A stretch of 58,601 nt of DNA, counting the filler, from Dugesia japonica (taxonomy: Eukaryota), in the NCBI GenBank assembly GCA_001938525.1. It is 5 parts of 5 records of this genome, joined end to end, with 100 filler letters (N's around TTAATTAATTAA, not from the genome) between each part and the next. Parts side by side here need not be neighbours in the genome. Positions count along the whole stretch, not along the records: positions 20,601 to 37,515 come from MQRL01498933.1; 4 more parts are not named here. One strand, written 5' to 3'. Positions 12,207 through 43,089 of the stretch are shown piece after piece. A program made the position numbers and the translations under genes. Each line of letters begins with the position of its first letter. The stretch's first letter is position 1. Below the pieces are notes generated by a model, which was not told the DNA's origin, did no database searches, and saw only the letters and a list, made by a program, of their open reading frames with translations.

Positions 12207-13242
12207 TCATCGATTGCATAATTGATAATATATAAGCAAGAGCCACATACTATTTCATCATTTTTAATGAGATTTAATTGACAAGTAAGATTTTATTTAA
12301 GTAATTATTTATATTTTAATTTTATTTTAGATTAATTATGAATAAAATCAAATAACAAATATGTGTTGCAACAAAAGGGGATTACTTTGATAGTGACAAA
12401 AGAAATTTGGTTGATTAAATAAATAATTTGTTTTATTTAAAAAGTAACTTTACTTTTTCAACACAGTAGTAGTATTAGATCTCGTTAAACATGATGAATT
12501 GAATTTCGGTTCTTCTTTTTAATGACAAAGAAGAATCGTTTTTATGCAGGTCCAAGTCTATTATTTAGGAATAAAAATTGCGGGCCAGATAGGCTGTTTT
12601 ACACACTAATTTTAATCCTTTTGTATTTTTTTATTTTGTTTTATCGATTTTCAAATATTAAAATTTTTTCATTTAATTTTTTCTCATCGTTAAAATTGTN
12701 NNNNNNNNNNNNNNNNNNNNNNNNNNNNNNNNNNNNNNNNNNNNNNNNNTCATCGATTGCATAATTGATAATATATAAGCAAGAGGCACATACTATTTCA
12801 TCATTTTTAATGAGATTTAATTTACAAGTAAGATTTTATTTAAGCAATTATTTATATTTTAATTTTATTTTAGATAAATTATCAATAAAATCAAATAACA
12901 TATATGTGTTGCAACAAAAGGGGATTACTTTGATAGTGACAAAAGAAATTTGGATGATTAAATAAATAATTTGTTTTATTTAAAAAGTAACTTTACTTTT
13001 TCAACACAGTAGTAGAATTAGATCTCGTTAAACATGATGAATTGAATTTCGATTCTTCTTTTTAATGACAAAGAAGAATCGTTTTAATGCAGGTCCAAGT
13101 CTATTATTTAGGAATAAAAATTGCGGACCAGATAGGCTGTTTTACACACTAATTTTAATCCTTTTGTATTTTTTTATTTTGTTTTATCGATTTTTAAATA
13201 TTAAAATTTTTTCATTTAATTTTTTCTCATCGTTAAAATTGT
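12207..13242. repeat. ~490-bp near-identical tandem duplication across an N gap (12207-12699 / 12750-13242)
   Basis: The two copies differ by only a few substitutions; probably an unmerged contig/haplotype overlap. Confidence 0.75.

Positions 13243-20600: not shown

Positions 20601-20658
<58 letters not shown>
20601..20658. repeat. (ATT)n microsatellite
   Basis: Directly visible. Confidence 0.95.
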
Positions 20659-20959
20659 GTTAAATTCAAAACCTTCCAACTCTCCATAAATTTTATTTAT
20701 TATTACAAGTGTTTTTGATTAAAGTAAAATTTGATTGAAGAATAATTCATAGTATTCATACAAATGATCTGAGAAATATTTCAATAAAAAATTTTTAAAA
20801 TATCGATTTTATTTTTATGAAATATTTTACTTTACATAATTATTTCATAAAATATTTTAAAAATATCGATTTTTAATTTTATATAATATTTTATTTTACA
20901 TGTTTCAAAAAAAATTTTTAATATGATATATATATATATATAAATTAAAAAATCTCTCA

Positions 20960-21300
20960 GATATTTAAATCTATGAATGATTCTTACATCCCCCTCTTCA
21001 AAGTTTTTTTTTGAATCTTTTCCACATTTCTTTCAATCATCTTGCCTTTTGAACTCTTCAGCAGGTATCGTCTTTCATGAATCTGTTTTATCACCTCTTG
21101 TAGACCTGTATATCTTTCTTTGTCTTTTGATCTGTTTTCTTCCTTGATTAGCACATCGTCTACAACTTGAAAATGTCTCTTTGTTGGTGTCAACTGTCCG
21201 GATTCTTAATTCTTTTCTCCATTATTGAAACATCTTTCTCTATATATTTTCTTACCCAATATCACTTCTGCTGGACTTATCCCCAAAGTCTTCTAGCTTG
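20960..21300 (-). mobile_element. Ty3/gypsy fragment: integrase C-terminus, PPT and LTR start
   Basis: TLGISPAEVILG..; FQVVDDVLIKEE..RYTG..VIKQIHERRYLLK..GKMIERNVEKI followed by aagagggggaTGTAAG. Confidence 0.7.
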
Positions 21301-22699
21301 TTGCTTCTAGCTTGTTTTTACCAACCATATTTTAATTTTTTTATTCGATCGATTTTTATCGGTTAATTTCAGATTTTTGCACAGTATTATTTAATTAATG
21401 ATAGATTTTAATTAGATTAATCTTTATTCTATAATTTCTTTTTATATAACATTTTAACATAGATATTTTTAGAAGGTTTTCCTTAAGAATTTTCTCTTGG
21501 TTATATTTAATTTTGTATCATTGCTAGTATTTGAATTTTGTCTCTTTTTTTTAAAATTTCTCTGTTTTTATTTAATATTTTAATATAGTAATGTAAAAGA
21601 TTTTTTCCATGGTAACATTTTTTTTCATCAGTTAATTTTCCCTGGAGGTATTTTAATTTTTACTTATATTAATAGTTAATTTTTACTAGGTTGTTCTTCA
21701 AATCTTTGTCCCTGTTTATATTTCTTCAGTAGTTTTTATATCTATTTAAATTTTTGAGTTCATTTGTTACATTAGGCTTAAATATAATTAGTATAGGATC
21801 TGATTGATTAGGATTATTATTTAATTAAATTATGAATTAAGTAGGTTAAAATGAATTAAACATAAAGATTAGATCTATTTAATTGTATTTGATGAAGTAA
21901 ACATATTAAATTAATTAACTATGGTGATTAGATTAATGGATACATTGTATTAGCTTTATGAGTGTATTATATTTGGTTTATTTAGAATATTAAGTATATT
22001 GAGAAGATTAAAAAGTAAGATANNNNNNNNNNNNNNNNNNNNNNNNNNNNNNNNNNNTTTTCTTTTTAAAATGTCTTCTAACAGTACCTAACAGTTAAAT
22101 ATGTCAAATTTCAGATAGAAACATGTGATGACAACAAATTTAATATTTTTAAATGGAAAATGATATGACAAATACAATAGCGTAGTTTAAACTTGAGTGA
22201 GACTCATTTGTAAAAGTTTTTAAAGATTTTAAATTTGAAAGTTGTTTAAACATTACATAAAACCGCCAGTTTTAAACACATTGTTTTACAATTAATGCCA
22301 TATAATAGAGAATTGAAAGTAGAATATATATTACGCAATCAAATTCAAGTACAAGTGTTTTCTCCACAGTAAAATGTTTTGCCCATGTTTATATGTAAAT
22401 CTTACCTTTGTAGTATTTTAGAGTTTTGCAACTGTAAGATTTTTAAATTTTTACCCCAGTTTATATTTCTTCCATCGTTTTTATATCGTTTTAAACTTTT
22501 TAGTTACATTAGGGTTCAATGTACGTATTTGATATAGAATCTGATTGATTTAATTTATTATATAGGTCATTTATGAATTAAGTAGATTAAATAAATTGAT
22601 CATATATAGGGAATATAATGTATTGATGTAATTAAATGTATTTGACAGTAAGTATATTAGATTAATTAAAAATGGTGATTAGTTTAGGGGATACAATGC

Positions 22700-23030
22700 A
22701 CCGAATAATACCAAGATTTGATCCGATCAAAATTGTGGGTGGGGCAACTTTTTATTCTTTGATGCATTCTAACTTTTCATCTTCACGCTTGATTACACTG
22801 AGAATTGAACCATGAGGACCGTCGAGTCATTACGCATCCAACGATACCATGGCGATAATTGTACGTTGAAGTATCGTGCGGGAAGGTCAATACAAATATT
22901 TGAACTACCGAGCATGTATTTCTCTATACAAATTTTCAAACCATAAACAGATCGAAAGTCTTAAACACTAAAGTCATAAACACTTTGCCAGCTGGGGAGG
23001 GGTGTTTATGTGCGCCACTATCTACCTGCT
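22700..23030. mobile_element. Isolated Polinton-type terminus fragment
   Basis: Ends in gtgcgccactatctacctgct, homologous to the terminus at 10306-10326; both are preceded by G-rich tracts. Confidence 0.55.
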
Positions 23031-24830
23031 TAAGTCAACCATTCGTGAAATTTATCAGTTACGATCTACGAAATATCTTTCTTATCATTAAATAATGAAC
23101 GATCAAAATAATGAAAAATCAAGAGATACCCTGACATTGATGAAGGATCGTGGAAGACACAGATGAAGATAATTGTGATCATAATTAAGCAGTAAAAGTT
23201 ACAGTTCACGCTTATTATATCACAAACACGAATTTGGTCTCATTGGAACAATTGATTATGAGGAATTTCTATTGTTTAAAGCCAGTGCCATGAATGCCTT
23301 CACTAAGTTATTGACTTTATGACAGGTAAGAGACCTAAGTTATAAAGATGAAATTGTCAGGGTTATTTTGTAACTCAGTGTGTCCTAAACTGTAAATTTA
23401 GAAACTACTTATTTTTTTGTATAACTTCGTGATGTTCTAGTTACTAGTAGATATTAACTTACATTTTTATGCTCTATCTCAATCACCAAAAAAAGAACAA
23501 AAAGGAAATTGAAGTGATCACGCATTTTGGTACCGAAGAATATTAACAGTCCTCTCTCAAAAGTCAAAAATAAGAAACATCTCATGCCAATTCTTGTTAG
23601 TTACATAGGTGAATAGAGACCAACAAAATAATTTATACATACCTACTTAAAAATTTTATGGATAAGAAAATGATATAAAAATACATTTTAAAATCTTGCA
23701 ATTTCCATTTTATAATTTAAATAATTTGTGAATGTGATATTTTAAAAATATTTAACCTACTCTTTAAACCTGGCCGTCCAAATTTTCAAGTTTTCATAAA
23801 ATATTGTTTTGGAAATTTCTAATTCGTCCTGTAATTTTACAATTTCCTAAATTTTATATTAAATTTCAATTATTTCAGATATTTGTCAGTTATTTTTTAC
23901 AGAAATAAACTTAAATTAAGCGTTGCAAAATAGCTAATTTCTATGGTTTACAAAAAAAATGATACAATCATCAAATTAAACGACTTTTGAAAGGAATGAA
24001 CTAAATGTAAACGAAATTAAAAAAATTAATTCTAAAGAAATAACCAAACTGATAAATTAAACAAATTACAGAAACACAGATAAAATCATTGTCATATAAA
24101 TTGTTTAATAACGAAATCAATATATTTAGAAAATAATAAATAATGTCAACAATGATAAATATTAAATCATTATCGACATAGACATATACAATTTTCACCA
24201 AGTTAAACTTATCCTTAGTACACCTGGGTCTTTTTATGTGGAGAATACATTCCCAAGAAAAACACATTAAAAAATCGAATTTAAAAAACCTAACTCTTTT
24301 TAATTGTTTCTTAAACTTTTTAATTTATTTTATTCAAAAATCAAAACGATACATTTTGAATGATATAAAATTGTATTCGTCTTACGGTTTTTTTTGTATT
24401 GTTTAGTATGTTTTTAATCATCATCACTAAAAGAAAAATAAACAGTGGAATTAGTGCCCACTTCAGTCTCATCAGTTTTAAAACACTTAATTAATTTAAA
24501 ACACAAATTTTAAGACAAACAAATTTAGTAAAACACTTACGATGCTTAAAAAATTTGCGAACACTAATTTTATTTTAAACAAATCAAAGTTTCAACTAGT
24601 ATGAACCTACAATACATACATGCTAATGTTCTGTGTAAATGCATTAACTTATTATCATGTACAATTACATAGAACGTTTCTCATAATTTCATTTAGTCAC
24701 TTTGTAGCAACAAGAATGTAGAGAATGCAATAATACAAAAAAACTTCAATTTCAAATAATTTTTTTATGGAGAATATAAACACATTTACAATACAATTTT
24801 GACGTAACAACAATAATAAAGCTTTAAAAC

Positions 24831-25155
24831 TAGGGGTCTACCGATATCAGGGTTTCGGATATATCGGTATCTGTAGTATGTATATGTCCCGATATTGACG
24901 TCACCGATATTTCATAATAAGTAACATTTTGACAAAAAATCCAGAAAAAAATATCATTTTGATTTATAAATATCTCAAGAATTTAATTTATCCATACTGA
25001 TAACAATATTAGGATTAGAATGCTTTTTAGCATGCTTAGAGTTTGGATGCAATTCTGGAAAGTCATCAAATAACAAATACTCATGTATCAAATAGTCATG
25101 TCCTAACAACTACTCGTCGGCAATATCAGCAAAAATGCATATCGGTAGACCCATA
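24831..25155. mobile_element. hAT-family MITE (325 bp)
   Basis: TIRs TAGGGGTCTACCGATAT / ATATCGGTAGACCCATA; perfect 8-bp TSD TTTAAAAC at 24823-24830 and 25156-25163; CCGATAT subterminal repeats. Confidence 0.85.
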
Positions 25156-26090
25156 TTTAAAACAATATGTATGCTGCTCAAATAAAATGGGTAATTCCTT
25201 TTTACTAAAACCTTTAACTAAAATTTGAATTCCGAAATCGCATTTAAAAAACTCGCATATAAAATCAAAAGAAATATGAACCGCATAACTTTAAAACTGC
25301 ACAAAAATCCACATAAAGAGACTTGAGTGTATAAGGCAATAGTTCTGAAGAATTTCAAACAATAGAAATGGATTAAAATAATTAACTATAGACAATATTT
25401 TCTATTAACCATATATTTATTTAAATTAGCTATATTTGTTAAAAGTGAATAAAAAATAAGTCTGAAATTAATTATGATTTCGAAAATAAATTATTTTTGA
25501 ACGATTCAATTGTAGATAAGTTATTACATAAGTTATTGACATTGAAAAATTAATAAAGCGCTGTGATTTATATTGTTACGCTAAAAACATTACCCAGAAG
25601 AAACAGCAGGAAAGATTAGTTCCTTGTTTGTTAGATGGCGATTCGTAGGGAAAATATGAAAAGTCGTTGAAAAATATTGAAAGGTTTCAGGCATGCTAAC
25701 GTTTGGTAGTTAAGTAAGAGAAAGTTGTGTCAAAGAATTTCAAATTTTCATTAACTATAGAAGTGAAAATGAAGATGAAGTTTATTTGAAAAGTGTTTAT
25801 TTAGTAAAATCATTGTTTACAAATCAAGATTTTACAGAGAAAAAATAGTTACAAAGATGCTAGTATATTTTGCAGATAATAAAGATTGAAGAAAATGGTG
25901 AATTTGTGGAACCAACAGAATATAAAAGAAATTGGAAAAACAATGACGTTAGTAGATCGAATAGAAAAAAAGAGATTAAGTTGATGCAGTTAGAAGTTAC
26001 GCTTAAGTTACAAGTCAAAATTATCAGAAACTTATAAATCATTGAATTAGTAGACATATGGGTTAAAATGAAGGATAAACGAATTTGGAA

Positions 26091-26257
26091 TGCTGGCAAT
26101 GTCATAAGATCGGTCATAATAAAGCAAATTGTCCGACAGAAAGTGGTAGAATGTTGGACTTGCCATAAGAAAGAACATATAAATTGAGTTTGTACTTATA
26201 AAAAATAAAACAAAATGCTTTCTTTGTAAAAAGATGGGCTATATTAGAAGGTTATGT
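26091..26257 (+). pseudogene. gag: gag nucleocapsid with three tandem CX2CX4HX4C-type zinc knuckles
   Basis: CWQCHKIGHNKANC; CWTCHKKEHIN*VC; CFLCKKMGYIRRLC (His replaced by Tyr in the third). Confidence 0.8.
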
Positions 26258-26639
26258 CAAAATCTGAGTTGTAAACAAAGTGACAATGGTGAACAGAAGA
26301 ATGCTACTCAAATTTGAAAATGAAAGGACCACTAAAATATTTGTGACTGCTACAAGGCTAGGAAACTGATATAATAGAATAAAGGCGATTGCTGATGAAA
26401 AAGTCAAAAACGATGGATATGAGGAAGTATATGAAAGTGATTTTCGAAGGCAGTATACAAAAGACAGGGCTCAACTAGCAGAGGAGTTATTTGGAGCAAT
26501 CCATTGTTAAATTAATTGAATGATCATACCTAAGAGGTTGAAGAGTGGGATAATATTGGGAAAGTTACAGAAATAATATCCAGGTTCTTAAAAACTGAAA
26601 ATTTAGGAGGGGATAGAGCTTGAAGAAGAATCTCCAGAA

Positions 26640-28610
26640 GAAAACTGCGTTTTCAACGAATCACGAACAATATTGTTTTAGGAGAATGCTATTTGGTATG
26701 GCAGTGACCCCGGGAATATTTCCGGAGATGATGACAAAGGTGGTAGAAAATAAAGAATGGAGCCGTGGTAAATCTTGATGAAATTCTCCTATTTACGAAC
26801 AATAAGGATCAGCAATATGAAATAATTCACAGAGCATTGACGAAAATAATAAAGGCTGGTTAAAACTTAATCTACAAAAGTGTCAGTTTCATCAAAGCTT
26901 AATCAAATTTCTTGTGCACATTCTAAGCAAGGATGGTGTTAGAACTTACCCGTCTAAAATAGAAACAATAAGAACATTTGGTAAACTTAACTATTTGAAA
27001 AAGTTACAAAGTTTCTTGGGAATTCGTAATTACTACTAAAGGTTTATTGAAACCTATGCGAGAAAATGAAGGATCTTAGAACAGTTATGTAATGGACCAA
27101 GCAACAAGAAATTAGAATGGATAGATGAAATAAAAGATAATTTTGAGGTTCTGAAGAATTTTCTAATGACTGCGTCAATATTGTGTTTTCCAGACATAAA
27201 CAGAGAAATTTTATTAGTTATGGGTGCCCATTTTGATATAATTAGAGGCGTATTGTCACAGAGCGATAAAGGAAAAGAAAGAATTGTTGCCTACGAGTCA
27301 TGAAAGGGGATACTGCATCACACAAAGAGTTATTGGATGTTTATTATTTGTGCATATATTTCAAACCTTACTTGTACGGCAGAAAATTTATTCTTAGGAC
27401 AGATCATAAGACTTTCATGATAATGACGAAGAAACCAATCACGTCACAATTCCAAATATAGATAAATTATTTCATTAGTCTAGATATAGTAATAGAAAAT
27501 ATAAAAGGAAATCAAAGTGGTAATGCAGATATGTTATCTAAATCAAGATGTGAAGTTACACACAGCAATGTCAAATGTCACACAAAAATGCTAAGGAAGG
27601 TAAGATTAAAACAAGAGTACTGAACACAATTGAAAAGGAAAAATAAGAGCAATTATATATTTTTGAGGAAAAACGATTTAATCAAGAAAATTAAAATTCC
27701 GGATGATAAAATACATTAAACAATAGAAGAAATACACATATTGTTATATGATGCAGGAGTTTAAAAGTTGTACGAATATATAAAAGACAAATACATTTCG
27801 AAGGATTTGTGGAGCCAAACATATGAGATAGTTCACAAATGTGAAATCTTTCAGATGACCAAAGTATTGACAATAGCAAACCAAATAGAATACAAAGAGA
27901 TTAGACGCTACGAATTTTTTGAAAACATATTCCCATATGAGAGCCAATACGGGATGCTAGTAAACAGAAAAAATACATTCTTGGAATAAAAGACCAGTTC
28001 AGTAAATATCTGATTCTTATAACATTGCCAGGACAAGATGATGAAGGAAACAATGCAAAAAGCTATTTTTGAGAAGTTGATATTGAGATGTGGATGCCCC
28101 AGAGAGATAAGACAAGATTGTGGAAAAGCTTTTGAATCCAGAGTTATGAGAAAGTTTAAATTAAATTTTGCTTTTTGAGTTTTTATCATCATAGTGCAAA
28201 TTGAAAGACAGTTTAATACAATTTGAAATTTAATTAATGCCCCACTTTAGAAGAGATGGATCACAGATTTGGCAGACTTATTTCCGGAAATAAAATTTAT
28301 AATTAACCGAAAAAAGGAGAAAACGACTGGAAAGACCAAGGTTGAAATTGTGTTTTGAAATAAAAAGGATACAGGTCAAAGAAATACAAGTTTCCAAGAG
28401 AAATAAAGAAAAATTTCGAAAGTGACTACTAATAAGGAATCAAAATTAAAAAAATTATGTCATTATGTATTTAGAAACAAGAAATGAAATTCAACACAGA
28501 TTTGTAGGTCTTCATCGAATAATTGAGAAAATTCACGAAAGACAATATGTTGTACAATAGAAAAATGGAAAGCGATTGGAGAGAAATGTAGAAAACTTAG
28601 AAAGTTTTTA
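26640..28610 (+). pseudogene. pol: pol (RT-RNase H-integrase), heavily disrupted
   Basis: Motifs as above, in RT-RH-IN order, with many stops and frameshifts. Confidence 0.85.
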
Positions 28611-28676
28611 AGAAGGGAATGATTCTAAAGAACTTAAACCAATAGAAATGGATTAAAATAATTAATTACTTGCTTA

Positions 28677-28811
28677 CTCCATCCCACAAAAAGTGGATTT
28701 AATAAATTTTGACATTTTAAAAAGTAACATTTTTTCTCGTATATATTTGAAAAATACAAATTTTCTTCGTTTTTTAATTTTTTTAAAAATCCACTTTTTC
28801 ATGGGATGGAG
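28677..28811. mobile_element. 135-bp MITE inserted in the gypsy 3' LTR
   Basis: TIRs CTCCATCCCACAAAAAGTGGATTT / AAATCCACTTTTTCATGGGATGGAG, flanked by TTA on both sides; absent from the 5' LTR. Confidence 0.8.
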
Positions 28812-29993
28812 TTAGTATAATATTTTCTATTTACCATCTATTTATTAAAATTACTGCTTTGTTAATAGTAAATAAAAATATGTCTGAAATTAACAGTTAT
28901 GATTTTGAAAAAAAATTATATTTAAATATTTTACTGATACTTTGCATTATCAGGTTTCTTAGTAAAGTTGGGGTTCCCCCATGGGTTTGGTGTAGAAAAA
29001 TACGGCTAGGAAAAAAACAGCCCTCAGGGGACCCTTTCAAAAATTTGGTCTCTTATTTTCTTTTGGCCAATCGGTACAAATTCCAAGTCATTTCAAGGTC
29101 CTCACTTTCTTCGCGTAGTTTCTTAGTCGCATTGACGGATCGGTTAAGAGATGAATGCCCTAAATGAGATGAAAATGGTTAACAGCTTAATAATTACTAC
29201 AGGTGAATCGTACGACATGTGGTAAAATGACAAACTTAGACAAACTAAGAGATCTTAACTAAATTAAGCAGTAAAACATTTATTAAAATTAGGACACAAA
29301 ATCACAATCAGTTTTCATTATTCGCAATAGTTTCTACATTCTCGGAATTCTCAAGACTTTCTGGCTTCTAGCTTGCTAAAGTAAGTTATTGATGGCTGCT
29401 CTTACTATAGGGGGAGCTTGTGGGTTACCATGCGAAAACTAGGTCACTAAACTTTGCGATAGGACATGCTACGAATAATAATTATGTCTTTCACCAAAAT
29501 CTCTTATTATCTCCACTACCGCTTCTATTACCGGTAAGTTGGAGCGGTCATTTAACACGCCAGCGTCCTTATTGTAGGGGTTAGTGTGGCATCCGAAAAC
29601 CACTCGCCGGTTCCGTCGGTCCCAAACTTGTTCCCAATAGATATTCACTAAAAGTAATCAAGAATAAAACTTCATTTCATCATTATGATTTCTCCAGATT
29701 TCGTTTATCGACACTTTTGAAGGTGCATTGGTTTCATTGTTAACTATCGGTGAGGGACTTCTTGTGGGTCTGCTGCTTATATGACTTGTATTTGGACTAA
29801 TTGGATCGATTTGCGAGTTACTTTCTTCATTCTCACTTGTACTTGAATATTCATTTTTGTTTTCGGTTGCGATAAAGCTCATTTTTGAAAGTGAAGAATC
29901 TATTAATACCACAGTTATAATTACATGTATACATAATCATCAACATAATTGTCTTTAACAGGTTTTACATTATCTACAGAGAATTAGTTTTAG

Positions 29994-30300
29994 CTAACAC
30001 GTCATTACCTTCGATACCTGATAGAATCTAGGCACATACATGGTTAGCTCGTTTGACACCATCCCTTCCGGCATCCTTTCATAATTTGGTGAGGCTTCCG
30101 GTAAATGTCGTTCCCTTCTTATTTGAGTGTGTTTATTTTTCTTTGATTTTGCTTTTCTGCATAGACATAGATACGCAATACCTATTCCTATTATTGCAGC
30201 GGTGAGGCTTTCAATTATTATCGTATAATCTGCTTCATTTTTGTGATTTGAGGTGTAGTAACTGGTATTTTTTCTGTAGTGGGTCTATCTAATGGTACCA
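29994..30300 (-). pseudogene. C-terminus of a type-I membrane protein (T/P-rich stalk, TM helix, cytoplasmic tail)
   Basis: PLDRPTTEKIPVTTPQIT / YTIIIESLTAAIIGIGIAYLCLC-RKAKSKKNK..PNYERM..*. Confidence 0.55.
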
Positions 30301-30446
30301 TATAATTCTCCTTTGATTTTGAATTAGATAGTACTCCTGTGCTTCCTCTTCTTTTTGGTTAGTGTTATTAGCCAATAAAGTCATTTTCATTCTTTCAATC
30401 CCGTCTAATGCTGTGCTGGCTAGCTGTTTTCCGACTTCATCCATTT

Positions 30447-30560
30447 CAGGTATTGTAGTTGTACATATTCCTAATTCCTCATCCGTTCATGCGAATATAT
30501 CTCGAAACTCTTCCAAGAGCTGTAATATTGCCGTTCGCTGTTCCTCTGTTAATGTTTCGG
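30447..30560 (-). pseudogene. Gypsy pre-RT/RT N-terminal segment, cut by a deletion
   Basis: TLTEEQRTAILQLLEEFRDIFA*TDEELGICT, matching LTxEQ..L..LLxEFxDIFA....LG.T. Confidence 0.7.
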
Positions 30561-30594
30561 GTTACAACTTTAAATGTCCTATCAATTTCATGTT

Positions 30595-30757
30595 ATGGNN
30601 NNNNNNNNNNNNNNNNNNNNNNNNNNNNNNNNNNNNNNNNNNNNNNNNNNNNNNNNNNNTAAACGGTAAACGGTAATTATCGGTTTTACCGGAAATTTTG
30701 ATTTTTTTTCGGTAAACGATATTACCAATTACCGCAAATTTTTTCCGTGGTGAATAC
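30595..30757. mobile_element. hAT-like MITE nested between protease 2 and RT (partly N)
   Basis: aacggtaa/ttaccg subterminal repeats; candidate 8-bp TSD ttcatgtt (30587) / ttcatgat (30758). Confidence 0.45.
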
Positions 30758-30779
30758 TTCATGATCATTGACATGTGTA

Positions 30780-31135
30780 TAACCTTTCAATGTTTGTAAT
30801 CGCAATGTTGAAAATTTTAATATTCCATCTTTCATCAAATCTGGCAGTATGTCAGTACCCAAAGTACATTGTCCTGGCATTTCAACAACTATCATGTTGT
30901 GTCTAATCTTGTTTTCCACATATTTTACATCACATGATAATTCCCAAAAAACTTTGAGGCTACTTTAGTTAGCCACATCTGTCGTAGTAGTCGTAGATAG
31001 TATATTTTTGTACTCTGTTATTGCGAATTCTTCAATTGATAATAATGAAATGGTTGCTCCAGTGTCCAACAACACTAGTGTGGGTCTAACATTGATTTTA
31101 ACTTGAATTGTTAGCAATGGTTCTCCACCGAAACT
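30780..31135 (-). pseudogene. Retroviral-type aspartic protease 2
   Basis: PLLTIQVKINVRPTLVLLDTGATISLLS (DTG at 31058-31066) ... QCTLGTDILPDL. Confidence 0.85.
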
Positions 31136-31439
31136 TACACACACTACATCGAATGGTTTGTTGTTCTGACCGATAACTTGTTCCCTTTCTTTCCATCTCG
31201 GTTCACGATTTTTGAATCTTGTCTAGTCTGGTCTTATCATGGTGGATTTCTAGTTCTCCGGCATCCCCAATTCTAGTTATATTGATTATAGCCACGTGAT
31301 GGTATATAATTTGGTTTATTAGTCGGTGGTTGATTCCATTTTGGTTATGGGTTTCGTCCGTTTGTCACTCCTTGGTTGATTCGTGGTTGTCGTTCAGTAT
31401 TGTTACTGTGGTTATCTCGGATAGATAATTTCCTTAAAT

Positions 31440-31680
31440 CCAATAAACAGTTTGGGCATAATCTTGGAAGGATGTCTAATCCCAATAAGCAATCGAAGGT
31501 CAATTCATCCATTATTCGCACTTTATGATATAGTTGAATTCCATCACTCTTGACCATACATATTACTTCTCCAAGTGGGGATAATTTTTATGGATTAAGG
31601 TCATACTAGCTCCGGTGTCAACGATGCCCGTTATTCATCTTCTATCCACTTTTATCTTTTTCTGTAGTAACTTTGATCTA
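31440..31680 (-). pseudogene. Retroviral-type aspartic protease 1 (small internal deletion/frameshift)
   Basis: KKIKVDRR*ITGIVDTGASMTLI (DTG at 31611-31619) ... PLGEV ... FDCLLGLDILPRL. Confidence 0.85.
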
Positions 31681-32299
31681 TGGGTGGTCATCATGCATAC
31701 GGTTTGTGTTTCCAACTTGTCATCTTCTGTGATCTGATTATTCGTTGCACCCAAACTTTGGTCAATTTTCCTCTTATCGTTAACTGATAATTGCGATACG
31801 TTGTTATCTGTTAGTAATGCAATGTTAGGTAACTGAGGTCAACCAATATATGTGGAGCCGTACATTGGACTTGGTGCCCACATTTGTGGTGGTTGATGGT
31901 TCATTGGATGCCAGCCATGTTGCGGATAGACGTTATAATACATTTGAGCGGGTGCTGAAGTGCTTTCAGCTCCGCCGAAAAGTAGCGCATACTTGATCTG
32001 TTGCAATTTACTAGTCTTCAAATACTGTTGCATTTTGTAATCCGCTTCGTATACTGTAGCAGTTTTATAACTGGGTACATTAAGCAGTCCACTGTTTTTG
32101 CCTCTATCATCGTCACTACTACTGCTACTCTCAATTTGGTTTTTAAATCTCTCTTTAAATTGATCGAAGTATGATATTTTCATTTTACTATTCCCCATTT
32201 CCTCGCATAACAATCGGAGTTGCATTACAACTTCTTTATCAGAACCTCTTATTTGTCCAGGTTTGCAGATAAATCGCTTTACCCTGTCGATATCTTTTG

Positions 32300-33454
32300 A
32301 GTGACTGTTGAGTACCATCGTTTCAGCTAAGAATGGAAATATCCCGGTTATCATTTTCCACTTCACTTTCTTCTCCCTTTTGTAAATGTCAAAGCAAGCG
32401 AATACTTGTGTGATTACTACCCGTGCTACTGAGATTATCAACATAACTCCTAATAATCCTGCGATAGCTTGACCGAATACTATGAATCTTCCCCACATTT
32501 TCCTCATGACGTTTTCGGTAGCATTTTGGAAATTATTAGCTAATAATAGTGCATCATAATTGAAACAACCGTTTATGTTTGATCCACTAGTTAACTGTAC
32601 GATGTAAGACAGAATCTGCATTCTCCTGACAGAAAACAACATATATTATCGTACATTCTCTAAGTCTTCTCTGCTGTAAATACCTTCTTTGCTTATATCG
32701 ATTGAAGTGAATTTCATCCCTCCATTTAACCATAACATCGAAAATTTCCGAGGTGCGAGTCCTACTGCGATATGTTGAGGGTATCTTATTCATGATCTAT
32801 TTGATAGGACGTACTGGGGTCCAAATACATTGGAGCAATTTCTGATGTTTGGTCGGTAGCCAAGAGGTGATATTATTCTAGTGATTGGTTGTATGTACCG
32901 CTTCTCATTTTTATGTATAACCTCCAGTTCATTGTAACAATGTTTCGGGTTGGATGAGAATTTGGCATCAATGGCTTTACATTGTTATAGGTACATAACT
33001 TCTCTCACTATTCTTCCAAATTGTCCTTTTTCGAGTGGAAGCAGTGGGGTTACACTGTTTGAATTTGTAACCGCCATGGCTAATTTTGTTTTCAATATTT
33101 CCTTGTTTAACGTGCAATCGTTTTGGATTAGGTCATGGTACATTCCTGCATCCTATTTAATAGGTTATTAATTTTATTAGATATGTAACTATGGTAACCA
33201 CAGTAGAATATGAAGGTCTTTACGGTTACTATACATTCTCGAACCTGGACTTTATAATAATCCGATTCTTGATAGAGGTGGTATATTGAGTTATTCCTGA
33301 CGGAAATTTTTTCCGGGTTTGCATCTGGGCACTCTTCGGTGTCTATTAATGAGAACACATCTTTCCCTACTTGCATACCGTTGCACTTATATGTAAGGAT
33401 AGTTTCTTCTCTGCCCATTAATAGGAATAATAGCAATATAGTAGTTGTTAATGA
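32300..33454 (-). pseudogene. Chuvirus-like (class III fusion) envelope glycoprotein, internally deleted
   Basis: Signal-like TTILLLFLLMG; ILTYKC..FSLIDTEEC..LYQESDY..RECIVTVKTFIFYCGYHSY; REVMYL*QCKAI..HCYNELEV..YIQPITRII; GIYSREDL..MLFS; KMWGRFIVFGQAIAGLLGVMLII (TM), collinear with chuviral G motifs as I recall them. Confidence 0.85.
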
Positions 33455-36400
33455 TTGCCATGAATTCCGCTGAAGTAACTGTGTCCATCCATTTTCAATT
33501 TCATTTAACTGATGTCTTACGATTCTAATTACTCTGGTTGCGTTATCATGTGATGGTTCTGGTTTGGGGCATATTGACTCAATAAATTTCTTCGACCCTC
33601 CGTACTGTTTTATTAGTGGAATGATTTTGTTCTGTATTAATTCTACGATGGGCAATTTGCTGAAGATAAAGTTTTTTGACGGCTTGCTTCTGGGTATGTA
33701 AAGGTGTGTTTGGTTGATTAGATGAGCGATAGCTACAACTATTCTTTTTTTAGTTGGTTTTTCTTGTAATAATTCGTCCAACACTCCCTCTAAATTCTCA
33801 CTTCTTCCATGCCCCGTACCCTTACTGGCAGGAAATTTCTTGATTGCTGATTCTAATAACTTTGCTAACGGCCTGAGACTGTCAGATAACTGAAATTTTT
33901 CAATCTATATTTTGAGCTCTGAATACAAGATTAATAGTAGCTGACGTATTACTAATTCAGTTGGTATGTCATCATCCGTAGTGTTACCACTATATCGTTC
34001 TTGCAGTAATGCTGCCAGGTGCTTAGTTTGATTATTTACTGAAGTTGCTAATCTTTTTTGCTTTAGGGCTTCTTCTACTTCTGGGTAGCCAGGCGGTTTC
34101 GCTCAATGTCTACCACGGCCTTTTTGTTCCGTAATCGTTTTCGTATTCTTTTTCGTTTGTACCGGTTCTGGGACTTTCTCTTTTTCTGTTTCTATCGGGT
34201 TCTCCGTCTCTAATAGGTGGTTTTGATGCATTAATTCATTCATTACTGATGACGGGAACTAATTAGCAATTTTGCTCAATATTGGTGACAATGGCTGTTC
34301 TTCCAGTATATTGTCTTCACCTAGATCTACCTTACTTGCCTCGTATTTGTTATTTTCGCCTTTTATTGCTTGTGGGGAATATCTGGAAAGGGTAATTCGT
34401 TTTCACTCGCTGAGAGCTCATTCATTGATGGTGATCTGAATATTTCCNNNNNNNNNNNNNNNNNNNNNNNNNNNNNNNNNNNNNNNNNNNNNNNNGTTTC
34501 TGTACTCCCGGATTGGTCAGTTGTGGGTCTTAGTATTTGGCTGGCAGCTAATTTTGTACGTTGCTTGAAGGCTTTTAATTTACCTGAAGCTTTTTCCATT
34601 ACATGTCGGGTTTTGTCAGCTGCTTTAAAGGGATTAGCATCTTTTTGTATGAGGGTACACCCTGGATCCAAAATAATCCACAGGGTATTTGGCTTAATTA
34701 CATCTATTTTCATTAGCCCAATCGGTGTAGTTTACTTGACTACTCCGCCGTCATCCAGGACTCTGTGTGGTAGATTAAATGGCAACTTTCCCGTATTTGT
34801 TTTACTGTGTTATAAACCGGTGCTTTAACTGGAATTTTGTCCCCATCAGGGCCAATTATTCTGAACTTAATGTGTAATGACGTAGATTGTTTCATTTCTG
34901 TTTTTCTCCATTTGACCAAAATCTTATTGAACTGAATCGGATTCCATACATTTGATACTATGATTGCCAAAATCAATCTTCGTAATTTCCTTCCACTGCT
35001 AAATTTTGTTGCATGGCTATTTTGGATCTTTGTATGATTTCTGGCTTCATTAATTTATCCCTGACTAATAGTTTAATTAGTTTTGGTAGGTTATCTTCGG
35101 GTTTTTTATCCTTTACTGAGGTGTTGGTTAAAGCTGCTACCATTTCTACTTGCTGTTTCCCTTGTTCTTGTTTGGTAAGTCTTGCCCTCTTAAATATTAT
35201 TGGGTGTATTTCCTCCATATAGTATTCAGCTATTTCCCGGGCTCTTTGTTTCCATATTTCTTCCGGGACTCGTGGTCGTCTTACTTTTCATCTTTGGTTG
35301 TTACATAAATTTTTTGCTTAGTGCCTGGCCACACTCCCAGATATTTAATCAGTAACCTCATGTGTTCTTGCTCAGTTTCCTGATTATAGAACAGTACAAT
35401 GTGCTTTTCCTGTATAAGTGGTAACCGTACTGATTCCTCGTCATCGTGAGTTTTTGCTTATTCATGAATTTCATGATTCTTTTCCTTAGTTTGGCCCAAG
35501 GGTCATTAATTTGTATATGAAACTGTATTTCGCTTTTGTTCGGAAATCTGATAACTATAGGAACCTCTAACTAACATTTTAGTGGCTTTATAAAGTATTT
35601 CGTCCATTAATTCCTATGGCATTCGGCTTATGGCTCGTAACTGGTTTAGTTGCATGATTAAGTGTATGATTCTTTCGTCTCGTAGTAGTTCTAAGTGTTC
35701 GTGGAGAGTCAGCAATATTTTCATTATCACGCGTGCCAACGTTCCCCATCATTTATTATCCTACCAATGCTCAATGTTTATCTCCACTTGTCTTCATCGA
35801 TTTCTTCGAATAACTTTCCGCTGTTTATCTCTTTTTCGTACAGGTCCTCTAACTGTTGCGTCACCTCTTCTTTAGGTTTTAATACGTCTTGGGTGTATTC
35901 GTCGAGGTTTTGTATTCGTAAATAGGTAATTTCTCCCGGCCCCAGTCCAAGATCCATGACATGTTGCTTCCCTTCGAACTTGATTGGGAACCTTAAATAA
36001 TCACTGGTGATTTCATTCCCTCTTTGTACTCTTGCTATATCTAATGATTCTATAATTTCTTTTAAGTCCTTAGCTTCTGTGTTGTTAAATTGGGGTATGT
36101 GTATCAGGATCAGTTCCGGTTTCATCTTAGGATTCGTACTTTGGGTTTTATATTCTATGGTGACTTTGAAGTACTTTCCTTTTGAACCTCCATTGATTGA
36201 GCCGATATATGGCCTATTACCTTATCCTATTTGTAACGTTCTTCTCTTGGGATACTAGTATAATTTGATAAATCCATTAGTAAATTCATAGCTTTCCAAA
36301 ACGTCAATAGGGGTAGCTTCTCTTGGAAATAACAAACATCGGTGATTATCCTGGCTATCAGTTCTGTTTGCGTGTAGCTGAAAAACAGCAAATTCTTGCT

Positions 36401-36895
36401 ACCAGGGTCGCAATTTGGGTTTAATTATTTGTTCCGGCCTTTCCTCCTTCTCTTCATCTGACATGCCGGGCGTTACTTCGTCGTTATTACTCCGGACCAT
36501 ATTTACATGTGACTTGCTTTCGCTATGTTTTTATGAGGCGTTCATTTTCCACTGGAAAAATATCTTGTAAATATAATTTCATCATGTTAAATATAAGTAG
36601 ATCCGTGTCTAGCATTTCGGTATCGGGATTTTTGTCGTCATCTTGCGTGGCGTTAGTTTGATATCCGTGGTCTCTCATGGTTTAATGTCGTATAGAAAAA
36701 TGTGGTCTTCCTTGTTAGCTTGTATTATAATCGTTGCTCCTGCCTGCATCTTATATGTCTTGAGCCATTTCGGCTATATCCATTTCTTGATCGGTTTCAC
36801 CCCATGCCGGATAGTTAGTCCTTCGAGACCTATTATGTCAACTTTTTTTATTACTTCTTTCTTGTTGAGGAGGCTTACTCGGATTGAGTAATTTG
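33455..36895 (-). pseudogene. Upstream polyprotein region of unknown domains, including a SUMO/ubiquitin-like segment (~34670-34874)
   Basis: Chain of same-strand ORF fragments (35778-36125, 34973-35218, 34740-34976, 34363-34713, 33128-33784) broken by single stops or frameshifts. Confidence 0.6.
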
Positions 36896-36899
36896 ATAT

Positions 36900-37515
36900 A
36901 GTTGAGGTTATTGTTTAACAAGAAAAGAACTGTTAGCTATTTATTATTTCACTCAACACTTCAATCATTATTTGTATGGTAAACAATTTATTCTTCGAAC
37001 GGACCATAAGGCGATTACTTTTATGTTATCTACAAAAAAGCTGATTACTTCACAATTCCAGACATGGATAAACTTCTTAAGCAGTTTAGATATTAAGATG
37101 GAATATATAAAGAGAATTTTACATGCAAACGCTGATTCATTATCTCAACAATCATGTACAACTTGTTCCCAGTGTAAAATGAGTCATCCACAAGCTAAAT
37201 CAAGTTAAAAACTCGTATCTTGACATTAATGACTGATAATGTTGGAAAAGAATGGCAAGATGGAGTTCAANAAATAGAAGAAATAAGAAAAGCAAATCGG
37301 AAAAACTAGAGGGGGTTAATTTTAGTCGGTGGAAGATATATTAAGAACAAAAGATAATAAAATATGGATACCAGAAAGAGAGTTGAATTAATTAAAAAAA
37401 ACTCATTTTATTTTGTGTCATGCTGGATGTGAAAAACTAAAATTATATATTAAAACTAATTTTGATATGAAAAATTTAGCAAGCTTTGTGAAAGAAATTA
37501 TTGATGGATGTGAAG
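36900..37515 (+). mobile_element. pol: Ty3/gypsy pol fragment (RNase H C-terminus to integrase zinc-binding region)
   Basis: GYCLTRKELLAIYYFTQHFNHYLYGKQFILRTDHK...HANADSLS; THFILCHAGCEKL...GCE. Confidence 0.85.
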
Positions 37516-37571: not shown

Positions 37572-37892
37572 NNNNNNNNNNNNNNNNNNNNNNNNNNNNN
37601 NNNNNNNNNNNNNNNCGGACGCTTCATTTATCCCAAAAAGTATTTTGTATTGAATTATCAATTGTACATTTATCTCGTAATTAACATCTACTAAAGTGTT
37701 TGTACTAATAAATATGATAAACGGTAACTCGAAGTAGTTTTTTTGGAATTATTTGCTTTATTAAAATAAACCTTTTTAATGAACCGTTCTAGGATTACTC
37801 ATTATTTCTTTGACAGCAGATATAAGTATAATAACTGTTATTNNNNNNNNNNNNNNNNNNNNNNNNNNNNNNNNNNNNNNNNNNNNNNNNNN

Positions 37893-37934
<42 letters not shown>

Positions 37935-37995
37935 TCATTTATTTTATAAAATTTATATTATTTATGTTATAATTTTAATTTACAGGTCACAAGAA

Positions 37996-39516
37996 ATGCC
38001 TAATTCTCACAAAAACCTATTAAAAATTTTAATACTCATTTTTATTTTATCTAACGTTTCATCACAAATGGATTATTGTGGAAAGTTCTGTGATGCATGT
38101 GTAGAAGATTCAATATCATGTACTAAACCTGGATTCAAAGAAATGCCACAGCATATTAGTAAAACCATAAAAAGATTCATTTTAATCAGTCAACAGTTTA
38201 CAAATAGTTTTCTCTCACATGAAAATTTTTCTCATTTCAGCCCTCCTAATGTTAACATTGAATATTTGTGTATTAGAAAATCAAATATAAAATTCATTAA
38301 ATCCATGACATTTTCTGAATTATCTATGCTGCGATCATTGGATTTAACGTATAATAGTAATCTATTTATTGATTCTCGCTCATTTTCCGGTCTTAAATTG
38401 AAGCTTTTAAAACTTGACAACAATGATAATCTGAAATTCTCAATAAACGCTTTTGTTGATTTAGTCGTCGATTCATTGCATATGTCGTCATCATCTATTG
38501 ACCAATTACCCTACGATTTATTGAAACCAATTTTGCCTTTTTTGAAAAAACTTTTTCTTAATCATAATAAATTGGTTGTATTAGATCCAAGATTTCAAAA
38601 TTCTTTCAAAAATCTTCAAACTCTATATTTACATGAAAATGAATTTGACTGTTCCTGCCAGATGAAATGGTTAACAGCTGTGTATACTTTTAGAACTACA
38701 AATGAAAAACACAGTAAAATAACTTTTTCTGATGAATCCGAACCCAGACCTATATGCAAAAAACCTGATTATATGAATGGGAAACAAATACATGAAATTC
38801 CTTTGTCATTATTTAACTGTGATCCTCCAAATCTTACTCAATTGAAAATTGACTTTCAATCTGCTACCGAAACTGAATTAAGTTGTTCAGCTGTTCAAAA
38901 TGTTGATCAAGCTCCAATGTCGATTGGTTGGTTTACTGATATGTTAAATGGAATTGGTAAAAAATTGTCATCAATTTTAAATCCTATTTCAAATTCTGAT
39001 CCAGTAAAAAAAGTTCATGTTGATACTGTCTTAATTCAAAAAAATAATTCTGTTGATTCTTTTCAATGTATTGCAAAAAATCTCAATGGAAATGCTACAG
39101 CAATTGTTCGAATTAGTTGGCCTCCGTCTGATAAGTTAATTAAAAGTGACAAAAACTTTTACCAATCAACAATTGATAGTTGGCAAAAATCGGATGAAGA
39201 CAATTATCTTTTTCAAAAACGTTTTACACTTCTTGAAATGTTTGGAGCTGTTTTCGGAACATTTTCTTTAACTCTAATTTTATTTTTTATGATTTATAAA
39301 TTGGTATTTATTAATAAAAACATTGATAGAAAATCCATGTTACCACCAAATGGTTATACTACTTATGAGGCTGCTGTTTACTCTGATAGTCAAACCTATG
39401 ACATTCCCGGTAATTCCTATCCACAGTCAGTTTTATTACCCATGCCTCATTTATCAAGTACCCCAGATCATTTTATAGATTTTAAAACTCAGAGAAAGTT
39501 CTATCAAACAACATGA
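37996..39516 (+). CDS. Leucine-rich repeat + Ig-like single-pass membrane protein (LIG/Kekkon/LRRN-like), 506 aa
   Basis: Acceptor tttacag at 37985 then an in-frame ATG; signal peptide; LRRNT (C..FCDAC..ISC); LxxLxLxxN repeats; LRRCT (ENEFDCSCQMKWL..C..P); Ig (LSC..W..FQCIAKN..G); TM (MFGAVFGTFSLTLILFFMIY); Tyr-rich tail. Confidence 0.9.
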   Translation: MPNSHKNLLKILILIFILSNVSSQMDYCGKFCDACVEDSISCTKPGFKEMPQHISKTIKRFILISQQFTNSFLSHENFSHFSPPNVNIEYLCIRKSNIKFIKSMTFSELSMLRSLDLTYNSNLFIDSRSFSGLKLKLLKLDNNDNLKFSINAFVDLVVDSLHMSSSSIDQLPYDLLKPILPFLKKLFLNHNKLVVLDPRFQNSFKNLQTLYLHENEFDCSCQMKWLTAVYTFRTTNEKHSKITFSDESEPRPICKKPDYMNGKQIHEIPLSLFNCDPPNLTQLKIDFQSATETELSCSAVQNVDQAPMSIGWFTDMLNGIGKKLSSILNPISNSDPVKKVHVDTVLIQKNNSVDSFQCIAKNLNGNATAIVRISWPPSDKLIKSDKNFYQSTIDSWQKSDEDNYLFQKRFTLLEMFGAVFGTFSLTLILFFMIYKLVFINKNIDRKSMLPPNGYTTYEAAVYSDSQTYDIPGNSYPQSVLLPMPHLSSTPDHFIDFKTQRKFYQTT

Positions 39517-41055: not shown

Positions 41056-42220
41056 TTAATTAAAAACATTCAATGAAGATTTGGAAAGACAAATTTGAAC
41101 ATTAATTTTTGGAGCAATTGACCTAATCAGCAATGCTTCACACAACTCTCTTCCAATAATTTTTACGTTTTTGCATGAAATCTTAAGATTATTTGTACTG
41201 ATAACTGATTTACAATTAATATTATGTTCAGCAATATTACTTCCACTACCAACTCGACGATGCTCCTGAATTCTTGTACAGAGATGATGGAAAGTCTCTC
41301 CAATGAATGTGACATTACTCATATTACATTTATATTTATAAAGAAGATCTGAACACAATTGAATTGGTGTTCTAGACTTATTACTCAACATATTTATGCT
41401 TTTAAATGATTGCGAAACAATTTTAAAATTTAATGAAATTAATATAAAGTAATTTCTTAACAACCCACTCTTAAATTGTTTAAATCCTTCCGAATACGAA
41501 ATAGTCAATTCTTAATTAAACGTATCCATCTTATTTGGGTCTTTGATAATACTTTCATAATTTAAATTATTATTACCATTTTTATTGATATCTTTTATTT
41601 CATTATTATTTTTGTGAACGATCTTATCAATTGTTTCACGATTTAATTTCAACACAATTATTTTAAAATAACCATTTTTATTTAGTAAAGAAATCAAAAT
41701 TTGAAAATATTAGCACAAGACTTCAAATATGAAGAAGAAAGAGTTCACGATCTATACAACAATCCTTTCATCATATTATACTTATAACGGGATTCACAAC
41801 AACTATCCAGAGATGTATATAAGCCTGAATTCGTTGGTTTATGATAAATTTCTGTTTGATAGTGTTTGTAGTTTTATGTAAAAGAAGTTTATATTTTAAA
41901 GAAAGAAAGTTTATATTTACATTCCATTTCTGTAGTGAATCTAATTTTTATGCAACGAATTCATGTCGTTTAGGAATGCGTTAATGTCTACTTGAATTTT
42001 AAAAACCAGAAATTTATCATCATTATATCTTTTCTATACTAATGGTTTTTTTCAGTAAACAAATTAATCTTTTTCTTAATATTTGAAAGAAACAAAGAAT
42101 CTAAAGTAGGAGCAAGAAGTCAAACCATCGCAACTCCACCAACTTGTTTGTACTATACATCAATAAATAAAAAATGTACATTAGTCTTAGCAAAACGTAA
42201 AGGATCCCTAAAACTTAACA
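41056..42220 (-). mobile_element. Penelope-like retroelement (RT + GIY-YIG endonuclease), decayed
   Basis: GGVAM..LAPTL..LFLS, RYNDDKFLVF, FTTEME, YHKPTNSGLY; LLYKYKC...FIGETFHHLCTRIQEH...IAEH...EALLI..PKIN. Confidence 0.85.
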
Positions 42221-42239: not shown

Positions 42240-42490
42240 GAGTCTTTAATTTAAATATACTCTATTAAATTTTAAATTTCTTATAGTATGATCTTTTTCT
42301 TACATTCTCTTTTTTAAAAATTTTTTTAATTTCTTTTACATTTCTTGCCTTCTGAATTCTTCAACAGGTATCGTCTTTCATGACTTTGTTTTATCGTCTC
42401 AAACGGGCCTCAAATCTTTCTGTCTTTTGATCAACCTTCTACCTTGATTAAAACTCCGTTGTCAGCTAAAAAATATCTCTTTGTTGGTGT
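42240..42490 (-). mobile_element. Ty3/gypsy integrase C-terminus/PPT fragment
   Basis: Homologous to 20984-21190 (VLIKVE..RFEA..KVMKDDTC; aaaaaagagaaTGTAAG). Confidence 0.6.
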
Positions 42491-43089
42491 CATATCAATG
42501 GTATATTGTAGTAAATTGTAGTCAATAGTTTAATTTTTTNNNNNNNNNNNNNNNNNNNNNNNNNNNNNNNNNNNNNNNNNNNNNNNNNNTTTTTTCGGCG
42601 TACATTATTTGCAACGATAGTTTCAATTACTGGTCTTTTATTTATTGTTGATGTTGTTTTGATTTTTTGTTGAGGGTTGTCAACCACTTCCTTTAATGTA
42701 TAATTGGCATCGTCGTTCACTTCAGACAACACATTCATTGCATGATTTTTTTGATGATTCTTCAATTGATTGTTTCTTGCTTATCACATCATTTACAGTT
42801 GTTAGTGCTGCTTAACTTTGCAAATGAAAGTCTAAATTGTGATTACATCAATTTCATTTATCGAGCTATTTCTTTCAATAATAAAAAATTTTAATTTTTA
42901 AGGTATTGGTGGAATGTTATCTAGCATCAATTTCTCACGAGTTTTAATTTTACCACAGTTGTTTCATCAAATTTATCGTGTTCTTTACTTGACTTGTAAG
43001 TACAAACCGAATATCTAATTAAATATTTNGTATACTAGAAGTAAATGGGGCCACACCCATTTATTTCACGATCAGAAAATTCTAACTTG

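Follow-up and report, generated by a model that had tools for sequence, protein, structure and literature searches.

The window analyzed here is a 58,601-nt stretch of Dugesia japonica DNA (assembly GCA_001938525.1) composed of five parts joined by filler, and the element in question lies in the part taken from MQRL01498933.1 (positions 20,601 to 37,515). The window is AT-rich with a GC content of ~25%, while a block from ~36.9 to 29.05 kb has a GC content of 35–40%, is A-rich on the minus strand and contains many broken minus-strand frames. Based on this contrast in GC and strand composition, we delimited the remnant of a retroelement at 29047–36905 on the minus strand, with approximate limits; its neighbours are a host repeat on one side, near 29046, and on the other an RNase H fragment of the plus strand, at 36906. 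Read along the minus strand, the remnant consists of two ubiquitin-like (Ubl) domains, a BCL-2-like domain, a signal-like helix, a glycoprotein (G) of the PF24664 family, a transmembrane (TM) helix, a cytoplasmic tail, two retropepsins and a linker that precedes the reverse transcriptase (RT). An initial annotation of the window had proposed the minus-strand order of signal helix, glycoprotein, TM helix and two proteases, and the PF24664 and RVP matches together with the hydropathy agree with it. We are confident that this locus is a dead copy of a Ty3/gypsy element, likely of the planarian Burro type, in whose intact relatives a class III G is encoded in frame between a BCL-2-like domain and a protease. 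The remnant is 7.9 kb long and truncated at both ends, compared with 25–30 kb for the Burro-type elements with their long terminal repeats (LTRs), and no LTR pair of the element was found in the window.

The G region begins behind an internal signal-like hydrophobic helix (33413–33457, hydropathy 1.68 over 15 residues), which falls under the stricter hydropathy threshold of a second scan, aligns with the helix ahead of G in three relatives, and is predicted to be followed by signal cleavage ahead of G. The N-terminal part of G (33179–33400) matches PF24664 positions 6–106 (E 4.5e-15), and the C-terminal half (32379–33143), which includes the TM helix at 32468–32412 and three stops (32985–32987, 32790–32792 and 32646–32648), matches positions 329–579 (E 3.4e-41); read with X at the stops, both pieces lie above the cut-off of PF24664 (Monjiviricetes_fusion). 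Positions 107–328 of the profile are absent from the window. The profile gap and the alignment to P0162, the nearest whole relative, which skips from residue 565 to 827 across 33179–33143, place a deletion junction with a frame change and a loss of ~250 residues at 33143–33179. Since contigs of both contig runs (X1, perhaps the source sample, and X5, from another study) bridge this junction gap-free, the deletion is not an assembly error. The C-terminal half of G is 48% identical to P0162, and P0065, which is 87% identical to the window over the 46 residues just behind the junction, keeps PF24664 positions 244–369; a close relative thus retains part of what the window copy has lost. The PF24664 matches support the chuvirus-type glycoprotein of the initial annotation, although the gene is not merely frameshifted but has lost those ~250 residues and carries the three further stops in its C-terminal half.

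Downstream of this, the C-terminal half of G, the TM helix, the tail and the D-T-G motif of the first protease share one frame, and the only stops between the TM helix and the protease are two TGA codons (31839–31841 and 31635–31637). The cytoplasmic tail and linker (31668–32378), identified by reading the frame of G through one TGA, gave no match to the long relatives beyond ~32270. Retropepsin domain 1 (31393–31667, D-T-G at 31619–31611, the protease itself placed at 31667–31459, one TGA, frameshifted) was found by RVP (E 0.0069) and by a protease hidden Markov model (HMM) in two frames (E 5e-6 and 5e-9), and domain 2 (30821–31120, D-T-G from 31066, one stop) by RVP (E 4.2e-6) and the protease HMM (E 5.8e-15). 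The common frame of tail and protease 1 noted earlier is real up to the D-T-G motif, but protease 1 as a whole occupies two frames and protease 2 a third one. An assembly gap at 30599–30659 separates protease 2 from the pre-RT linker (30436–30573), a stretch of 45–50 residues matching P0160 (E 0.002) and P0162 (E 0.085) that stops short of the RT core; the gypsy RT start of the initial annotation comes down to this linker. Neither Pfam scans nor comparisons with relatives detected the RT core, RNase H (RH) or integrase (IN) of the minus-strand element in the window, and the RT and RNase H matches at 26620–27569 and 36909–37148 come from other gypsy remnants, which run along the plus strand. 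The locus is a dead, twice-deleted copy that has lost the central part of G and the whole of RT-RH-IN.

Upstream of G, the domains that had been annotated as unknown are present and have become partly identifiable with HMMs built from relatives only. With seven segments of relatives and no window sequence in the model, the Ubl HMM placed the partial domain 1 (35361–35570) first (E 1.2e-4) and the open reading frame (ORF) containing domain 2 (34743–35054) second (E 1.7e-3) among 399 window ORFs, with a third row at E 0.75. The Ubl profile of the relatives matches ubiquilin and ISG15, and the Pfam UCH_UBL1 match on 35361–35570 is weak (E 0.08). The BCL-2-like domain (33571–33890), directly before the signal helix, was detected by an HMM of five relatives that ranked the window ORF 33131–33904 first of 399 (E 4.1e-7; next row 0.58), and the ESM Atlas returned no usable match for this ORF. 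When the window was aligned with P0003, P0009 and P0017, the helical domain ended in a G-G motif just before the signal helix, and all four rows had the helix within ~15–70 residues behind the domain. When a profile of this domain was compared with the PDB, all but one of the 60 rows shown were Bcl-xL or Bcl-2 (best E 0.003, Bcl-xL), and Pfam Bcl-2 matched P0009 (E 9.6e-4) and P0158 (E 0.0015), both short of the Pfam cut-off. As the initial annotation had stated, the upstream ORF reads straight into the signal peptide: the frame at 33128–33904 (stop to stop, 258 codons) continues unbroken into the helix and the N-terminus of G. Further upstream, open stretches mark a broken coding sequence at 35778–36860 that shows no gag match and had no useful match in Pfam, the Atlas or the relatives. 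An NFACT assignment of 35778–36221 was rejected, the ESM Atlas leads all being sub-0.9.

The intact layout became visible in database relatives. A homolog search of 1.84 billion representatives yielded 435 matches at E ≤0.001, of which 150 were listed, and 20 top or long matches were chosen from these for domain scanning. PF24664 was present in all 20, followed by a protease in 12, RT in five and integrase in four; six further relatives obtained as cluster mates or by a word search (P0154, P0156, P0158, P0159, P0160 and P0162) all have a protease behind G. Every one of the seven relatives reaching integrase has G first in a single ORF, in the order G-PR-RT-RH-IN (PR, protease), with gypsy-type RVT_1, RT_RNaseH, Integrase_H2C2 and rve in sequence, and the envelope gene (env) is in frame and unbroken in P0158, P0162, P0154 and P0156, as the single-ORF check suggested with the initial annotation had anticipated. 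P0162 (4099 aa) encodes BCL2-like-G-PR-RT-RH-IN in one ORF and is collinear with the window over BCL2-signal-G (E 7e-22), G-TM (E 2e-82), protease (E 5e-11) and the pre-RT linker. P0158 contains Ty3_capsid, CCHC knuckles, two Ubl units, Bcl-2, G, two proteases and ankyrins, in that order; ankyrin is also present in P0156. By predicted domains, the relatives have the Ty3/gypsy order PR-RT-RH-IN, of which PR and the pre-RT linker are all that is left in the window. A word-index search with P0002 for longer proteins, a weak test, found none. Two of the 28 relatives listed carry a name, in both cases hypothetical protein, and P0005, one of the two, is filed under a Flavobacteriaceae metagenome bin; this gypsy polyprotein is probably misbinned animal DNA or contamination.

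Two features of these ORFs stand out. First, among the 23 long proteins searched, 13 contain a protease domain and eight of the 13 contain two to seven copies, as counted with an HMM built from the same proteins, two pairs of which fall into common 90% clusters. Two proteases lie in the window, and its nearest relatives P0160 and P0162 have one each. P0156, P0012, P0003 and P0007 have three to seven retropepsins per ORF, some behind the integrase and some without the catalytic motif. Second, in six of the seven integrase-bearing relatives the ORF continues behind integrase and there encodes a signal-like helix and one or more further hydrophobic helices. In P0005, P0007, P0027, P0154, P0156 and P0162 this post-integrase region comprises a signal-like helix, an ectodomain, a TM helix and a tail, with three hydrophobic helices in P0162. 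An FN3 identity of the ectodomain is unproven, with FN3-bearing chains at E 1.2–1.4 and no Pfam match under E 0.05. In the window, an ORF with a TM helix (hydropathy 2.1), a basic stop and a tail at 29994–30284 on the minus strand is possibly a remnant of this membrane protein by its position and shape, and it had no sequence match among the 23 long relatives. Our limited literature search found no account of the repeated proteases, the second membrane protein or the join of BCL2 and signal helix, the first two of which Grohme 2018 may describe.

The glycoprotein itself was placed by a tree and by a fold comparison. The tree of the C-terminal half of G contained the window and 44 hand-picked rows of the 150 listed matches, with a midpoint root for drawing only, and placed the window within a 17-row clade (support 100/97). 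Eleven of the 16 database rows of this clade have an in-frame protease, two, which stop within G or shortly behind it, have the BCL-2-like domain, and three are short fragments; the 28 rows outside the clade are mostly 570–880 aa, and none of the four scanned has a protease. P0122, with DUF5641 ahead of G, is outside the clade; we take DUF5641 to be the C-terminal domain of BEL/Pao elements. As for the fold, an AlphaFold model of the relative P0009 (pLDDT 82.9, 96-row alignment) matched herpesvirus gB in the PDB (E 3e-13; Z 11.7, rmsd 8.9 over 388 residues) and chuvirus G in BFVD (E 8e-39), a class III match of the kind that had been expected for the window G. These matches confirm the G family as class III fusion glycoproteins, and the window G belongs to this class by the PF24664 membership of both its pieces together with the gB fold of P0009.

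These results bear on whether a chuvirus glycoprotein gene could have inserted by chance, as a nested endogenous viral element, into a gypsy element that lacked env. Solo chuvirus glycoproteins are common in mosquito genomes according to the accessible text of PMC7642597, and G-like DNA is far more repeated than its surroundings: in run X1 the summed contig depth, which is not a copy number, was 5,000–32,000 over G and 63–100 over the proteases, so that depth over G at 31811–33917 reached several hundred times that of neighbouring protease bins. This excess may mean that sister families have kept G better than its surroundings, or that there are derivatives consisting of G alone. Against such an insertion, G in the window shares, apart from decay, the frame of both neighbours, the same BCL2-signal-G join occurs within one ORF in P0162 and P0158, and the tree groups the window G with polyprotein-embedded G, apart from the free-standing rows. 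Because of the single-ORF relatives, the G tree and the class III fold match, we rejected the chance nested insert, which we regard as very improbable. The results that the initial annotation had set against its own proposal, namely intact copies without G or with G only behind integrase, insertion junctions of its own around G, or no class III match, did not appear, and its reading of an enveloped gypsy-like lineage with a mid-polyprotein env, related to giant planarian retroelements, is supported by the relatives, the tree and the fold.

The layout as such is not new. In the accessible text of Arkhipova and Yushenova 2019 (PMC6431247), which cites Grohme 2018 and Jurka 2007 for the giant Burro/GYPSM1 gypsy elements, the env of planarian Burro elements is described as lying in one frame with the BCL2 domain before it and the protease after it, decayed Burro-type fragments with stops and frameshifts are noted in Dugesia japonica, and the set of accessory domains varies between species. 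As far as that text describes them, Burro/GYPSM1 elements resemble the window element in having one polyprotein with Ubl/SUMO-like, BCL2-like, env and protease in the same order, and an env matching mononegavirus fusion glycoproteins; the window copy differs in being 7.9 kb long, lacking gag, LTRs, RT, RH and IN, and having two Ubl domains and two proteases. Likewise, the accessible text of Chary and Hayashi 2026 (PMC13524379) reports gB-type, chuvirus-like env as the sole kind in gypsy elements of flatworms, nematodes and bryozoans, where the order is GAG-ENV-POL, listing nine flatworm elements, six of them from Schmidtea mediterranea at 1–215 copies, and gives the entry route of gB-type elements as unknown. 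These HSV/gB-type GAG-ENV-POL errantiviruses share with our element a Ty3/gypsy pol and a chuvirus-like, gB-fold env upstream of pol, and the N-terminal rows of G in the six Schmidtea elements, as given in PMC13524379, resemble those of the window by eye. The accessible text of that paper contains neither the word Burro nor passages with 'single ORF' or 'in-frame', and 'protease' once, in a figure legend on the canonical ORF layout; the word Burro is likewise absent from PMC8532177. Already published are the in-frame env of Burro, between gag and pol, and the GAG-ENV-POL order of gB/chuvirus-type gypsy elements in flatworms, nematodes and bryozoans.

The Burro-type reading is based on the Ubl-BCL2-env-PR order, which is the same in the window as in the published Burro elements. 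A separate, non-Burro GAG-ENV-POL gypsy lineage sharing the layout by older descent or module swapping is unlikely, though more probable than a chance insert: GAG-ENV-POL elements are not monophyletic in the accessible text of PMC13524379, P0011, P0015 and P0075 fall in the window clade with G after Gag and no BCL-2-like domain seen, the nearest identity is only 48%, and the window is without MATH, BIR and ankyrin. Set against this are the domain order, which equals the one described for Burro in the accessible text of PMC6431247, and P0158, which has the same order plus Gag, CCHC knuckles and ankyrins. With 48% identity to its nearest relative, our element possibly belongs to an undescribed subfamily of the Burro type.

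The remaining points weigh against the interpretation as a Burro-type element with this domain content. First, the Burro assignment is likely by comparison with a published domain description rather than with a Burro sequence directly, and the accessible text of PMC6431247 likens env to gypsy/paramyxovirus-type Env (96.7% in HHpred), while the window G is class III. Second, the fold was modeled on the relative P0009, not on the window G. Third, the window BCL-2-like ORF alone had no Pfam match and no homolog in a word-index search (a weak test), and its single-sequence model had a pLDDT of 47 with no fold match; a first HMM combining helical and Ubl domains missed the window upstream ORFs in six-frame text, and a helical-only HMM missed them as single ORFs, while a Ubl-only HMM matched. 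Fourth, Pfam scans of the window remnant found no gag, MATH, BIR, ankyrin or dUTPase, and CCHC knuckles, which are present in P0158 and P0012, were likewise not found in it. At last, two raw RNA runs, read to 6% and 25%, gave a mean depth of ≤0.32 in all 25 bins over 29102–36626, with flanking repeats covered in the same runs; the RNA-seq check proposed earlier thus registered the surrounding repeats but next to nothing from the element. This scarcity of reads also counts against a host-domesticated env or BCL-2-like gene, which the 258 codons open over the BCL-2-like domain and signal helix at 33128–33904 might suggest; with stops and frameshifts throughout and the middle of G deleted, we consider domestication hardly conceivable and retain the dead Burro-type copy.

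Among better known systems, the mosquito Anakin elements show the capture of a chuvirus glycoprotein that the initial annotation had cited. Anakin resembles our element in having a chuvirus-type glycoprotein on an LTR retrotransposon, but in the accessible text of PMC7642597 it is a BEL/Pao element, not gypsy. An element of the Anakin type would have a BEL/Pao pol with G behind it; the window relatives have gypsy-type domains and G before pol, so the window element is not of this type. Jingchuvirales and Mononegavirales G and herpesvirus gB share the PF24664 sequence family and the class III fold with the window G. Those glycoproteins are generally free-standing genes with an N-terminal signal peptide, whereas the signal of the window element is internal.

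Several other features lie in the window. A decayed gypsy remnant with a CCHC-like knuckle and traces of RT, RNase H and integrase at 25860–28300 (plus strand) is a different element, and the RNase H fragment adjoining the 5' end of our remnant (36906–37208, plus strand) belongs to a highly repeated gypsy family and is 69% identical to 27324–27505. A 577-codon open frame with leucine-rich repeats (37783–39516, plus strand), behind which visual inspection suggests an Ig-like stretch and then a TM helix, lies 0.9 kb from the element and is likely a gene for a host receptor. The 151-codon ORF at 41056–41511 (minus strand) had only a weak, unrelated match in Pfam and by eye resembles what we presume to be a GIY-YIG/Penelope-type endonuclease. 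A 300-nt direct repeat (12207–12506 and 12750–13049, 97%) lies beside assembly gaps, and 21007–21192 and 42310–42492 form a dispersed repeat pair (~79%).

The domain order in the window and the single ORFs of the relatives, read with hydropathy and established endoplasmic reticulum (ER) targeting, suggest how an intact element may work. The Gag end would be made and kept in the cytosol, and the internal signal helix would thread G into the ER lumen, where cleavage by signal peptidase would release its N-terminus. With the TM helix the chain would pass back into the cytosol, and there RT and integrase would be excised by the proteases. Made at a single membrane, Gag, G and Pol would stand at 1:1:1; enveloped particles would bud from this membrane and, in the way proposed for errantiviruses, use fusion of the gB type to enter further cells. 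The topology, cleavage and infectivity of a Burro-type element, like its co-translational insertion and its formation of particles, are predictions from sequence, a further point to be set against our interpretation. The window copy is incapable of any of these steps because it lacks the central part of G and the whole of RT-RH-IN.

A bolder possibility, which we offer tentatively and hold to be rather doubtful, is that Burro-type elements are retroviruses built like the polyprotein of a plus-strand RNA virus. Cellular BCL-2 proteins have a tail anchor at the position corresponding to the signal helix. The cleaved signal helix of G might accordingly anchor the BCL-2-like domain as a tail-anchored apoptosis regulator, up to seven proteases might cut at different places, and the post-integrase type I membrane protein might help the gB-like fusogen as its partner in attachment. 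As a locus this is a fossil, and for a possible spread between cells in animals with lifelong stem cells the broken copy adds no testability over the intact published elements. What it brings together is that the Burro env described in frame in 2019 and the GAG-ENV-POL elements of gB type from 2026 look like the same thing, with a class III env. If the predicted topology is true, one ORF would fix Gag, envelope and Pol at 1:1:1, unlike in retroviruses, and the BCL-2-like protein would be anchored by the signal helix of the envelope itself.

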